A DNA stretch of 64,000 nt from Candidatus Rokuibacteriota bacterium (GTDB lineage Bacteria; Methylomirabilota; Methylomirabilia; Rokubacteriales; CSP1-6): the NCBI GenBank assembly GCA_044869815.1, contig JBIOXS010000108.1, forward strand, positions 23,369 through 87,368, written 5' to 3'. The notes under the pieces were generated by a model, which was given only the letters and a program-made list of their open reading frames with translations, was not told where the DNA came from and made no database searches. Shown here piece by piece: positions 7,765 through 18,114 of this stretch. Numbering within the stretch: the first letter of the stretch is position 1; every line of letters begins with the position of its first letter. Made by a program: the position numbers and the translations under genes.

Positions 7765-8118
7765 TTGTCCGGGTACGTCCCGGTGGCCGTGTTCGCGGTT
7801 CTCATCGTCGGTTTTGGCGTGGTGTCGCTTGCGGCCGCGCAACTTTTGCGGCCGAGCCGGCCGGCGATCGTCAAGCTCATGAACTACGAATGCGGCGCGG
7901 AGCCGATCGGCTCGGCCTGGATCCAGTTCCCCGTCGGCTTCTACCTGGTGGCGCTGATCTTCATCGTCTTCGACGCCCTCGCCGTCTTCCTGGTGCCCTG
8001 GCTGCTGGTGGCGCGGCCACTGGGCCTGCCGGGTTTCTGGACCATAGCCGCCTTCGTGGCCATCATCGGCCTCGGCTGGGTCTACGCTTATCGCGAAGGA
8101 GTGCTCGAGTGGAAGTGA
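7765..8118 (+). CDS. nuoA: NADH-quinone oxidoreductase subunit A (locus 1)
   Basis: TTG start 7 nt after AGGAGG. The protein has 3 TM helices and the NuoA motif NYECGAEP. The track ORF starts at a spurious upstream codon. Confidence 0.85.
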
Positions 8119-8723
8119 AGCCGCCGGTGCCGCAGGTGCCACCGCCGGTGTGGAGCGAGTTCGAGGAGCTCCAGCAGTTCGAGAAGTACCGGCACCACCG
8201 CGCCGACGACGACAAGACCTCGAACACGCTGGCCTCGATCGCCGACGCGATCCATCACATGCCCGGCGGCTGGATCGTCACTACCTCGACCGACAAGATC
8301 TTCAACTGGGCGCGGAAGTCGTCGATCTGGCCGGTGACGTTCGGCCTGGCCTGCTGCGCGATCGAGATGATGGCGACCTTCGCCTCGCGCTTCGACGTCG
8401 AGCGCTTCGGCATGGTGCCGTGGGCCTCGCCGCGTCACTCCGATCTCATGATCGTGTCCGGCACGGTGACGATCAAGATGGCCCCGATGCTCAAGCGCAT
8501 CTACGACCAGATGCCCGACCCCAAGTGGGTCGTCTCGATGGGCTCGTGCGCCAACTCCGGCGGACCGTTCCGCCACGGCTACCACGTCGTGAAGGGCGTG
8601 GACCGCGTGGTGCCTGTCGACGTCTACGTGCCGGGATGTCCGCCCACGCCGGACTCCTTGATGTACGGCCTCTTGAAGCTCCAGGAGCAGGTCGCCGAAT
8701 TCCAGAAGACCGGCGCGAAGTGA
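8109..8723 (+). CDS. nuoB: NADH-quinone oxidoreductase subunit B (locus 1)
   Basis: GTG start after AAGGAG. The N2 cluster cysteines are present ([20 protein letters not shown]). Confidence 0.85.
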
Positions 8724-9175
8724 CCGCGCTCGCCGCCGTCGACGCCGCGGGCCGGGTACGTCAGGAGTTCGGCCTCGAGCCGATCGTGGATGGCCAGAGC
8801 CTCACCGTCGGCGTCCCGCTCGACCGCTGGCAGGCCGTCGGGCGCTTCGTGCGGGAGACGCTGGGGTGCCGCTTCTTCAACTTCCTGACTGCCATCGACT
8901 GGAAGGAGCAGGGACGCGAGGTCATCTGCCGTGCCGACAACCTCGAGGCGCGGCTCAGCGTGCTGATGCGCGCCCGGGCCGTGGACGACCGCTGTCCCAC
9001 CCTCACCGGCGTCTGGCGCGGGGCGGACTGGATGGAGCGCGAGTGCTACGACATGTTCGGCATCACCTTCGAGGGACATCCCGATCATCGTCGCATCCTC
9101 CTGGGCGACGACTGGGAGGGCCATCCGCTGCGCAAGGACTACGCTGTCGACACGCCGCACACGCCGTACCGATAG
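8720..9175 (+). CDS. nuoC: NADH-quinone oxidoreductase subunit C (locus 1)
   Basis: The GTG overlaps the nuoB stop. It shows 30-kDa subunit similarity ([17 protein letters not shown]...LRKDY). Confidence 0.8.
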
Positions 9176-9185
9176 GAGTGGAGCG

Positions 9186-15168: not shown

Positions 15169-15172
15169 CGCC

Positions 15173-16714
15173 ATGATCCGATTTCCGGTGCTGTCGGTCA
15201 TCACGTGGATGCCGTTCCTCGGCGCCGTGCTGATCATGTTCGCCGCTCGCCACCGGCCACTGGCGGTGCGAGTCATCGCCACCGTCAGCACCGCGATCTC
15301 GACGGCGCTGTCGCTCGGCCTCTACGTCGCCTACGACCGCGAGGCGGCGCTGCAGGGCACGAATTTCCAGTTCTACGAGAAGGTGTCGCTGGTCCCGCCG
15401 CTCGGGATCAATTACGAGCTCGGCGTCGACGGCATCAGCCTGCTGATGGTGCTGCTGACCTCGATCATCATCTTCGCCGGCGTCTTCGCCTCATGGACGA
15501 TCGCGTCGCGGAGCCAGGAGTTCTACGCGCTGTTGCTGGCCCTCGTCACCGGCGTCTACGGCGTGTTCGTGTCGCTCGATCTCTTCGTCTTCTTCCTGTT
15601 CTACGAGCTGGCCGTGCTGCCGATGTATCTGCTCATCGGAATCTGGGGCTCGAGCGGCGAGGTGCGGCCGCGCGGCGTCTTCGCGTGGGCGTTCCGGGAG
15701 ACGGGTGTGGGCTCGAAGGAATACGCGGCCATGAAGCTGACGCTCTATCTGCTGTTCGGCTCCGCGTTCATCCTGGTGGGCATCTTCGCGCTGTACGTCA
15801 CCGCCGGCACCGCGTCGTTCTCGTTCCTCGACTTCGAGGGCACCGCCTTCGATCCGAGCCTCCAGCGCTGGGTCTTCCTCGCCTTCTACATCGGCTTCGG
15901 CATCCTGGCGGGCATCTGGCCGCTTCATACCTGGTCGCCCGACGGCCACGCCTCGGCGCCGACGGCGGTGTCGATGCTGCACGCCGGCGTGCTCATGAAG
16001 CTCGGCGCCTACGGGGTGGTGCGGATGGGCATGGGCCTCTTGCCCGAGGCCGCCGCCGAGCTCGCCTGGCTGGTGGGTGGCGTGGCCTGCATCAACATCG
16101 TCTACGGCGCGCTCTCGGCCATGGCCCAGGTCGATCTCAAGTACGTCATCGCGTACTCGTCCGTCTCGCACATGGGGCTCGTCATGCTGGGCGCGGCCAC
16201 GCTGACGGAGGCCGGTCTGAACGGCTCGGTGTTCCAGATGTTCGCGCACGGCGTGATGACCGGATTGTTCTTCGCCCTCGTCGGACTGGTCTACGAGAAG
16301 GCGCACTCGCGGGAGATCGGCAAGATGGGTGGCTTCGGCCGCGTGATGCCCGGCGTGGCGACGGCCTTCACCATCGGCGGCCTGTCCTCGCTCGGGCTGC
16401 CGGCGACGTCCGGGTTCGTGGCCGAGATCCTGACGTTCATGGGCGCGTGGCGGTCGGCGTACAGCTGGTGGCTGGTGCCGGCGGTCGCGGGAACGTTCCT
16501 CACCGCCGTCTACGTCCTGCGCGTCACCAAGCAGATCTTCTGGGGCCCGCCGTCGCCGCACTTTCACCATCTCGAGGACGCGCGCGGCACCGAGTGGGTG
16601 GCCCTCGTCATCCTGGTCTTCGTCCTCGTGCTCTTCGGTGTCGCCCCCGGGATCGCGCTGGTCCCGGTCGACACGGCGACCGTGCCGCTGCTGTCGCGGA
16701 TCCTCGAGCCGTGA
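15173..16714 (+). CDS. nuoM: NADH-quinone oxidoreductase subunit M (locus 1)
   Basis: 513 aa antiporter-like subunit. Confidence 0.9.
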   Translation: MIRFPVLSVITWMPFLGAVLIMFAARHRPLAVRVIATVSTAISTALSLGLYVAYDREAALQGTNFQFYEKVSLVPPLGINYELGVDGISLLMVLLTSIIIFAGVFASWTIASRSQEFYALLLALVTGVYGVFVSLDLFVFFLFYELAVLPMYLLIGIWGSSGEVRPRGVFAWAFRETGVGSKEYAAMKLTLYLLFGSAFILVGIFALYVTAGTASFSFLDFEGTAFDPSLQRWVFLAFYIGFGILAGIWPLHTWSPDGHASAPTAVSMLHAGVLMKLGAYGVVRMGMGLLPEAAAELAWLVGGVACINIVYGALSAMAQVDLKYVIAYSSVSHMGLVMLGAATLTEAGLNGSVFQMFAHGVMTGLFFALVGLVYEKAHSREIGKMGGFGRVMPGVATAFTIGGLSSLGLPATSGFVAEILTFMGAWRSAYSWWLVPAVAGTFLTAVYVLRVTKQIFWGPPSPHFHHLEDARGTEWVALVILVFVLVLFGVAPGIALVPVDTATVPLLSRILEP

Positions 16715-18114
16715 GGGCCTCACCGCTCGTCCTCGAGCTCGGCACCGGCGCCCTGATGCTCCTGGTCTTCGGTCTCGGCCTCTTCGGGCGTCCCCGCGAG
16801 CGGCGCCTGGTGGGCCTCCTCGCCACCGCCGGCGTCTTCGTGCTCGGTGTCCTCGCCATGCTCCTGGCGCCGTCGGGCCCGGCGCTGGGCGGGATGTTCG
16901 TGCAGGACGGCCTCGCCGTCTTCGTCAAGCGGGTCTTCCTGGCCGCGACGTTCATCGGCCTGCTGGCCGGGCTCGGCTCACCGCAGTTCGCTCGCCGCAG
17001 CGCCGAGTACCACGTGCTCATCCTCACCTCGCTGCTCGGCATGCTGACGCTCGCCTCCGCGCGCGACGTGATCCTCCTCTTTCTCGCCTTCGAGCTCATG
17101 TCCATCCCTCTCTACGTGCTGGCCGGCTTCGCCAAGCGCGCCCCGGAGGCGCTGGAAGCCTCGCTGAAGTTCTTCCTGGTCGGCTCGGTGTCCTCCGCGG
17201 TGATGGCTTACGGCTTGTCGTTCGTCTACGGCGCCACCGGCAGCACGAGCCTGGCCGTCATCGCGAAGGCGCCCGGCAATCCCTGGCTCACCCTCGGGCT
17301 GCTGGCGGTGCTGACCGGCGTGGCGTTCAAGATCGCAGCGTTCCCGTTCCACATGTGGGTCCCGGACACCTACGAGGCGGCGTCGACGCCGTTCGTGGCG
17401 TGGCTCAGCGTGGCTCCGAAGGCAGCGGGCTTCGTGCTCCTCTTCCGGATCTACTTCGAGGGCGCCGGTGATCGCGCAGGGGTGTGGGGGCCGCCGGCGG
17501 CGGCGCTGGCCACGGCCACGATGCTCGCCGGCAATCTGATGGCGCTTCCGCAGAAGAATGCCAAGCGGCTGCTCGCGTACTCGGGGATCGCGCAGATCGG
17601 CTACATGCTGGTCGGGATCGCGGCCGCCTCGGCGTCGGGCACCGCGATGGTCCTCTTCTATCTGGTCGCGTACGTCTTCGGCAACATGGGGGCATTCCTG
17701 GTGGTCGAAGCGGTCGCCCGCTCGGAGGGCTCCGAGGCGACCTCGGCCTTCCGCGGCCTCGCGCAACGCTCGCCGCTGCTGGCGCTCGCCATGCTGCTCT
17801 TCCTGCTGTCTCTGGGCGGCATTCCGTTCGTCGCGGGCTTCTGGGCCAAGCTGTACGTTTTCTGGGCCGCCGCCGAGCGGGGACTCTACTGGCTGGTCCT
17901 CATCGGCGCGATCCTGACGGTGGTCGCCCTCTTCTATTACCTGATCATCGCCAAGAGCATGTACATCGAGGCGTCGTCGCGCACCGATGGCGTGAAGGTC
18001 GCGCCCGCGCTGGCGGCATCCGTCGTGCTCTGCGTGATCGGCATCCTCGCCCTCGGCGTCTATCCGAAGTCCGTCGTCATGGCCGCGCTTCGGGTGGCGG
18101 CGCCGCTATTCTAG
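16711..18114 (+). CDS. nuoN: NADH-quinone oxidoreductase subunit N (locus 1)
   Basis: The GTG overlaps the nuoM stop. It is a 467-aa antiporter-like subunit. The track ORF 15205..18114 is an out-of-frame extension. Confidence 0.85.
   Translation: MRASPLVLELGTGALMLLVFGLGLFGRPRERRLVGLLATAGVFVLGVLAMLLAPSGPALGGMFVQDGLAVFVKRVFLAATFIGLLAGLGSPQFARRSAEYHVLILTSLLGMLTLASARDVILLFLAFELMSIPLYVLAGFAKRAPEALEASLKFFLVGSVSSAVMAYGLSFVYGATGSTSLAVIAKAPGNPWLTLGLLAVLTGVAFKIAAFPFHMWVPDTYEAASTPFVAWLSVAPKAAGFVLLFRIYFEGAGDRAGVWGPPAAALATATMLAGNLMALPQKNAKRLLAYSGIAQIGYMLVGIAAASASGTAMVLFYLVAYVFGNMGAFLVVEAVARSEGSEATSAFRGLAQRSPLLALAMLLFLLSLGGIPFVAGFWAKLYVFWAAAERGLYWLVLIGAILTVVALFYYLIIAKSMYIEASSRTDGVKVAPALAASVVLCVIGILALGVYPKSVVMAALRVAAPLF

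Follow-up and report, generated by a model that had tools for sequence, protein, structure and literature searches.

The stretch of DNA analysed here, 64,000 nucleotides from a Candidatus Rokuibacteriota bacterium (assembly GCA_044869815.1, contig JBIOXS010000108.1, positions 23,369 to 87,368) and hereafter called the window, carries at positions 7765-18114 an operon for a complex I-like enzyme that we refer to as locus 1. The window has a G+C content of ~69%, and its raw lists of open reading frames (ORFs) are therefore full of shadow ORFs; gene starts were picked by position and upstream sequence, and the ORFs were then scanned against Pfam. All eleven Nuo families A, B, C, D, H, I, J, K, L, M and N were recovered on the + strand with E values of about 1e-22 to 1e-108: nuoA (7765-8118, PF00507, E 1e-29), nuoB (8115-8723, PF01058, E 5e-32), a short form of nuoC encoding 151 aa (8720-9175, PF00329, E 8e-35), nuoD (9823-10983, PF00346, E 4e-85), nuoH (10980-11972, PF00146, E 3e-108), nuoI (11962-12519, Fer4 families), nuoJ (12519-13013, PF00499, E 9e-22), nuoK (13015-13314, PF00420, E 3e-27), nuoL encoding 616 aa (13318-15168, PF00361 and PF00662), nuoM (15173-16714, PF00361) and nuoN (16711-18114, PF00361, E 8e-71). 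Between nuoC and nuoD lies a twelfth gene on the same strand, which encodes a two-domain NIPSNAP protein of 211 aa (9186-9821, PF07978, E 6e-52). Gene-to-gene gaps range from -11 to +10 nt, and a scan for promoters and terminators inside the locus gave no signal above shuffle expectation.

Searching by tblastn revealed no NuoE, NuoF or NuoG homolog in or beside locus 1, the window's sole copies belonging to a second nuo locus (locus 2, described below), and no match to these subunits was found in any of 80 orthologous loci (0/80). An initial annotation of the window had described eleven nuo subunits without nuoEFG at 7765-18114, and both the Pfam matches and the tblastn searches bear this out, although the 211-aa ORF in the nuoC/nuoD slot had been overlooked, so that the operon has 12 genes. 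The same annotation held that locus 1 could not oxidise NADH on its own, which is supported by the finding that the locus encodes no NADH site of its own. It is close to certain that locus 1 specifies a complex I-like enzyme devoid of the NADH-oxidising module (N-module).

The cofactor and quinone-site residues of the enzyme are in place (subunits of loci 1 and 2 are distinguished by the suffixes 1 and 2). All four cysteines ligating cluster N2 are present in NuoB1 (C80, C81, C145 and C175), and NuoI1 contains two [4Fe-4S] motifs of the form CxxCxxCxxxCP at residues 68-79 and 106-117. At the quinone site, His31 and Tyr80 of NuoD1 align with His38 and Tyr87 of Thermus Nqo4. The C-terminus of NuoD1 reads SVDPVFGEVDR, with no DPCxxC nickel-binding motif and no NiFe cysteines; the normal N2 and quinone-site features of NuoB and NuoD and the lack of [NiFe] cysteine motifs had been described in the initial annotation, with which our residue alignments agree. 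Two peculiarities were observed in these subunits. NuoB1 begins with a proline-rich N-terminal extension of ~50 residues (aa 1-50, window positions 8115-8270), kept in orthologs and absent from NuoB2, which could be a docking or anchoring element; and NuoD1 has a cysteine, Cys58 (window positions 9994-9996), in a conserved loop of the 49-kDa type, reading HRCHEK as compared with HRGMEK in NdhH and HTGFEK in Thermus. A NuoD indel shared by NdhH and hydrogenases was considered as a clade marker and dropped, the NuoD1 loop being simply the shortest of all.

The NIPSNAP gene is preceded by a Shine-Dalgarno sequence of its own; 10 nt separate its start from the nuoC stop codon, and 1 nt separates its end from the nuoD start codon. 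Its product is free of any cysteine and consequently cannot carry an Fe-S cluster. A confident AlphaFold2 model (predicted local distance difference test score, pLDDT, 93; predicted template modelling score, pTM, 0.88) displays a tandem ferredoxin-like alpha+beta barrel that matches structures 5ixu, 1vqy, 2ap6 and 5kak; the structures nearest to it are NIPSNAP domains that have not been characterised, "putative monooxygenases" of the ABM type and coproheme decarboxylases. The solved NIPSNAP structures are all uncharacterised structural-genomics targets.

To survey the distribution of this arrangement, we scanned with a NIPSNAP alignment, taking one genome per species, and classified the 80 loci retrieved by tblastn. 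The NIPSNAP gene occupies the nuo slot in 78/80 species loci of Rokubacteria/Methylomirabilota, 71 of them showing the full nuoC-NIPSNAP-nuoD order and 7 showing one flank followed by a contig edge, while the NIPSNAP gene stands alone in the other 2/80. The named NIPSNAP homologs were all from metagenome-assembled genomes (MAGs) of Rokubacteria/Methylomirabilota. Across orthologs the identity to the window copy is 62-94%, comparable to that of NuoC, NuoJ and NuoL, and the NIPSNAP tree falls into two clades with the same split as the two types of nuo cluster: type i, which includes the window and has IOR-family (indolepyruvate:ferredoxin oxidoreductase) alpha and beta genes upstream and a TetR gene downstream, and type ii, which has variable upstream genes. 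The NIPSNAP gene, in its slot between nuoC and nuoD, is translationally coupled, and it has diversified together with the operon throughout the lineage.

The boundary of this subfamily is also visible. A NIPSNAP representative 63% identical to the window copy directly follows nuoC, whereas representatives at 52%, 49% and 42% identity are found in unrelated catabolic or transporter contexts; since NIPSNAPs at ≤52% identity are not linked to nuo, the nuo-type NIPSNAP is a recruited subfamily. When a profile of the distant representatives was used to look for nuo-linked NIPSNAPs outside Rokubacteria, the matches were again mostly from Rokubacteria. In some type-ii clusters the nuoC/nuoD slot is filled by two NIPSNAP genes in tandem (L031, at ~7666/8310; L033, at ~1730/2373; L038, at ~3000/3643), of which the second copies are rare, 45-48% identical to the window NIPSNAP, and form a separate divergent clade. 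Ten loci (L011, L012, L016, L018, L020, L028, L042, L047, L051 and L067) carry a Rokubacteria-type cluster with NIPSNAP identities of 64-74% in MAGs labelled as other taxa (Limnocylindria, Acidoferrum, Dormiibacterota, Nitrosotalea, Deferrimicrobiaceae, Verrucomicrobiia, Acidobacteria, Nitrosocosmicus and Gaiellaceae); these are most likely mis-binned contigs and not horizontal transfers.

Locus 1 has exactly three antiporter-like genes, nuoL, nuoM and nuoN. Alignment of NuoL1, NuoM1 and NuoN1 revealed that the glutamates of transmembrane helix 5 (TM5) and the Lys/Glu/Lys pattern of TM12 are kept, and both membrane glutamates of NuoK1 are present. Residues 11-608 of NuoL1 align with the NuoL proteins of E. 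coli (613 aa) and Thermus (606 aa), i.e. end to end, with no lengthened lateral helix. The canonical TM7 lysine, which in E. coli NuoM is K234 and is essential by mutagenesis, is intact in NuoL1 and NuoN1. In NuoM1, Leu245 occupies the position of this lysine in Paracoccus Nqo13 and cyanobacterial NdhD1 (alignments to 8qby_M and 6hum_D), and a 19-aa insertion is found at about residues 163-181, between TM5 and TM6. Both the leucine and the insertion are present in 53/53 orthologs, which indicates that they are selected traits. Taken together, the subunits of the quinone-reducing module (Q-module) and the membrane arm are complete, and the cofactor, quinone-site and most proton-channel residues are intact.

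Using the locus-1 proteins as tblastn queries, we found paralogs at 38.4-46.8 kb of the window that are 30-52% identical to them. This locus 2 comprises, by Pfam, nuoA2 B2 C2 D2 E2 F2 G2 H2 I2 J2 K2 (38328-46779, +), with nuoE2-F2-G2 at 40990-44326 (+); it contains no nuoL, nuoM or nuoN, and tblastn detected no paralog of these three genes beyond locus 1 anywhere in the window. The two loci are ~20 kb apart and lie amid housekeeping genes, the nuoEFG set lying ~23 kb downstream of locus 1. Locus 2 is preceded by lipA, for lipoyl synthase (37348-38331, +), whose stop overlaps the nuoA2 start, and followed by the genes for E1alpha, E1beta, E2 and E3 of a 2-oxoacid dehydrogenase (46773-51535, +), with the E1alpha start overlapping the nuoK2 stop, so that 37348-51535 forms one apparently translationally coupled operon. 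As this 2-oxoacid dehydrogenase produces NADH, the operon encodes an NADH source together with the module that oxidises NADH. When metagenomes were scanned with NuoH2, ~45 related contigs were long enough for the layout to be judged, and all of them had lipA-nuoA..K-E1-E2-E3 with no L/M/N inside 10 kb. With both layouts conserved in the lineage, the EFG-bearing cluster is always without LMN and the LMN-bearing cluster always without EFG. Within locus 2, NuoD2 (39630-41000) has 456 aa and is ~70 aa longer than NuoD1, with an insertion at about residues 300-380, and NuoG2 (42689-44326) is short (545 aa). The locus 2 enzyme is probably a separate NADH-linked isozyme with NuoL/M/N encoded elsewhere in the genome, a third nuoLMN locus being favoured because split nuo operons are common.

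Upstream of locus 1, Pfam confirmed the IOR family for the two genes at 2277-5926 that the initial annotation had named, i.e. a 2-oxoacid:ferredoxin oxidoreductase with an alpha subunit (2277-4415, +, TPP_enzyme_C) and a beta subunit (4412-5926, +, POR and DUF6537). Downstream, a TetR-family regulator (18264-18947, +, PF00440 and PF16925) is the neighbour kept in type-i clusters. Between IOR and nuoA, type-i loci have three conserved minus-strand genes (5937-7627 in the window) that may regulate the flanking operons: one for a single-TM peptide of 84 aa, one for a response regulator that includes a PilZ (c-di-GMP-binding) domain, and one for a membrane protein without a Pfam match. Two of these ORFs were examined as redox carriers and ruled out, 5937-6170 (-) being a single-TM peptide and 7070-7627 (-) a membrane protein, neither with an Fe-S motif. 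Other genes of the window point to heterotrophic catabolism (2-oxoacid dehydrogenase, methylmalonyl-CoA pathway, peptide transporter). Further upstream, a minus-strand ORF of 277 aa (1010-1843) gave a weak Pfam match to LAGLIDADG_3 (homing-endonuclease-like, E 6e-5).

We interpret locus 1, with a confidence slightly better than even, as encoding a proton pump that passes electrons from a low-potential donor, probably ferredoxin, to quinone, with a lineage-specific NIPSNAP accessory or assembly protein, alongside the separate NADH-linked isozyme of locus 2. A soluble low-potential one-electron donor would deliver electrons to the clusters of NuoI, and from sequence considerations this donor is most likely ferredoxin, which the neighbouring IOR-family enzyme or other 2-oxoacid:ferredoxin oxidoreductases would reduce. 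Electrons would then travel through the two [4Fe-4S] clusters of NuoI to N2 in NuoB and on to quinone in the pocket formed by NuoD, NuoB and NuoH, and quinone reduction would drive proton pumping via NuoH/A/J/K and NuoL/M/N. The NIPSNAP protein, being cytoplasmic and cysteine-free, would most likely serve as an accessory subunit of the peripheral arm or as an assembly factor of the Q-module, and not as a redox module; as an accessory subunit it might cap or shape the face on which the donor docks, a place taken by NuoEFG in the canonical enzyme.

Similarity to solved structures lends some support to a ferredoxin-type donor. Judged by phmmer bit scores against all PDB chains, a measure of similarity and not of phylogeny, NuoD1 scored highest with cyanobacterial NdhH (342), followed by chloroplast NdhH (313-317), Thermus (309), mitochondria (259-289) and E. 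coli (233-235), while NuoD2 displayed the opposite ranking (mitochondrial-type 282-320, NdhH 270). NuoL1 likewise scored 394 with NdhF1 as compared with 336 for the next match. NuoM1 had no Ndh preference (Paracoccus 268, NdhD1 260). The IOR genes, for their part, were found in 28/30 type-i loci with enough upstream sequence.

Several observations weigh against this interpretation. NuoH1 (plant Nad1 235, Thermus 232, NdhA 222) and NuoI1 (mitochondrial TYKY 89, NdhI 85) show no Ndh preference, so that the likeness to ferredoxin- or F420-dependent relatives put forward in the initial annotation is matched, on the ferredoxin side, by the scores of NuoD1 and NuoL1 but not by those of these two subunits, nor is it accompanied by an NDH-1 accessory or FpoF-like gene in the operon; by similarity, locus 1 shows a partial affinity to the ferredoxin-dependent NDH-1 lineage, not membership. 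The IOR genes are found in 0/20 type-ii loci, they are not co-transcribed with nuo because three minus-strand genes separate them from nuoA, and no free ferredoxin gene was found in the window. The earlier suggestion of IOR as the link to a ferredoxin donor is thereby narrowed: in one sub-lineage IOR can reasonably be taken as supplying reduced ferredoxin, and NIPSNAP, not IOR, is the constant partner of the enzyme. As regards NIPSNAP itself, no complex I or NDH-1 accessory subunit appeared among the top 50 PDB fold matches of the model, and copies of the nuo-type gene outside nuo clusters are known (L001, L021 and L062; gene at 10001-10636/10633; 65-72% identical), although their nesting in nuo-linked clades suggests secondary relocation or duplication. 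In addition, the pumping mechanism or stoichiometry may differ in an enzyme whose NuoM is without the TM7 lysine, and the lack of LMN at locus 2 leaves room for cross-assembly between the two loci, which we regard as unlikely.

Among the other explanations, one treats NIPSNAP as a passenger gene with an unrelated role (e.g. small-molecule or stress-related) that became fixed in the operon of an ordinary 11-subunit enzyme. The catabolic and transporter contexts of other NIPSNAPs and the existence of stand-alone copies are consistent with such a history, as is a fold resembling cofactor-free monooxygenase-like and heme-handling proteins and no complex I subunit. However, a passenger would hardly be expected to keep an identical intra-operon slot in 78/80 species, to be so tightly coupled and to co-diversify with the cluster; moreover, the subfamily boundary coincides with the boundary of nuo linkage, and where the gene has been duplicated in tandem, the duplicate sits in the same slot. 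We consider this explanation fairly unlikely.

A second explanation, to which we would give only a small chance, regards loci 1 and 2 as modules of one system, in which both front ends draw on the one NuoL/M/N set of locus 1 and/or NuoE2F2G2 also binds to the Q-module of locus 1; locus 1 would then be no independent, NADH-blind enzyme. It draws on the strictly complementary content of the two loci in one 64-kb window, the conservation of both architectures across the lineage and the lack of a third L/M/N paralog in the window, and cyanobacterial NDH-1, in which one core combines with alternative NdhD/NdhF modules, is generally known as a precedent. Nevertheless, split nuo operons with distant nuoLMN are common and the L/M/N paralog search spanned the window only; the homologous subunits of the two loci are just 30-52% identical, a large divergence for any shared interface to accommodate; and E2F2G2 is embedded in the locus-2 operon, while 11-subunit enzymes work without an N-module in many phyla (PMC3144371, PMC11238625). 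An elaboration that we hold to be quite improbable combines two alternative front ends, the NADH-linked locus 2 and the N-module-less locus 1 with NIPSNAP as its donor-face adaptor, on one shared NuoL/M/N module that includes the lysine-less NuoM. If true, the shared-module arrangement would be a respiratory counterpart to the modular NDH-1 family of cyanobacteria, and the NIPSNAP family would obtain its first molecular function.

Finally, the enzyme could run mainly in reverse, the proton-motive force driving quinol electrons up to ferredoxin; the low-potential reductant so obtained would serve biosynthesis, or the IOR-family enzyme in the reductive synthesis of 2-oxoacids. Reverse operation has been proposed in Nitrospira, Nitrospina and Manganitrophus for complex I copies that are modified or have no N-module, and the atypical NuoM could alter coupling, but those organisms are chemolithoautotrophs with a reverse tricarboxylic acid cycle whereas the window genes indicate heterotrophic catabolism, and locus 1 has neither an extra pump subunit nor a lateral-helix insertion of the 2M type, so we attach little probability to it.

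Returning to the interpretation of locus 1 as a donor:quinone proton pump with a NIPSNAP partner, its closest relative among known systems is the N-module-less 11-subunit enzyme, which is known across many phyla and for which the foundational survey found no designated partner protein (PMC3144371); for this enzyme, the question of donor and docking partner goes back to at least 2011. In Desulfitobacterium, a 2024 study did not settle on a donor but leaned towards pyruvate:ferredoxin oxidoreductase (PFOR)/ferredoxin, and it stated that cyanobacterial-type extra subunits "are not excluded" (PMC11238625). Locus 1 resembles this enzyme (Friedrich & Scheide 2000; Moparthi & Hagerhall 2011; nuoABCDHIJKLMN of Desulfitobacterium hafniense) in its eleven subunits and gene order, in having no NuoEFG and no NiFe cysteines, in keeping the Q-site and Fe-S ligands and in having ferredoxin as the suspected donor. 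It differs in the NIPSNAP gene fixed between nuoC and nuoD, in a NuoM without the TM7 lysine and with an insertion, and in the nearby partner locus that bears EFG and lacks LMN.

Cyanobacterial and chloroplast NDH-1, a ferredoxin:plastoquinone oxidoreductase (PDB 6hum), is likewise without NuoEFG and provides the best matches, NdhH and NdhF1, of NuoD1 and NuoL1. It depends on the lineage-specific soluble donor-face subunits NdhS/V/O. In contrast to its scattered ndh genes with multiple NdhD/F, locus 1 is a single operon, NuoH1 and NuoI1 are not nearest to NdhA and NdhI, and NIPSNAP has no NDH-1 counterpart; the NDH-1-specific subunits NdhL-Q, S and V were found neither in the operon nor in the Pfam scans of the window ORFs. 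In the canonical 14-subunit Nuo/Nqo enzyme, the Q-module and membrane arm are homologous to locus 1, which lacks the module for NADH and flavin mononucleotide; locus 2 is of this canonical type as far as nuoA-K, without nuoLMN at the locus. The F420H2:methanophenazine oxidoreductase Fpo and the flavodoxin-dependent complex I of the Campylobacter type are also complex I relatives with non-NADH input, but Pfam scans of ORFs revealed no FpoF-like gene in the operon or the window, and the operon contains no NuoE/F replacement of the Campylobacter type. The traits of 2M or green complex I, an extra NuoM or MrpD-like subunit and a longer NuoL lateral helix, were not found in locus 1.

The nuo-type NIPSNAP shares with its family (PF07978; 1vqy, 2ap6, 5ixu; mitochondrial NIPSNAP1/2) the two domains that form a ferredoxin-like alpha+beta barrel pseudo-dimer, and differs in being embedded in a respiratory operon, whereas eukaryotic members have been studied as mitophagy signals. 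To our knowledge, no molecular function has been established for bacterial members, and a link to nuo would give them their first functional context, their eukaryotic relatives being mitochondrial. Our literature search returned no paper tying NIPSNAP to nuo, NDH-1 or the phylum Methylomirabilota, and nothing relevant on complex I of Rokubacteria/Methylomirabilis was found in Becraft 2017, Versantvoort 2018, a preprint on peatland Acidobacteria, the Nitrospina and Manganitrophus papers or a 2025 hidden Markov model survey. The 11-subunit class is thus already known, and what is new here is the combination of a NIPSNAP gene with a constant place in the operon, a NuoM devoid of the TM7 lysine and a partner locus of complementary content. 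Fixed in the operon across a whole soil phylum, NIPSNAP is a concrete, testable candidate for an accessory or adaptor protein; NuoM amounts to a natural experiment, since the residue it lacks is regarded as essential to proton pumping; and with EFG at one locus and LMN at the other, it may be asked whether isozymes share modules. Since Rokubacteria are abundant in soils, the enzyme of locus 1 matters for understanding their energy metabolism.

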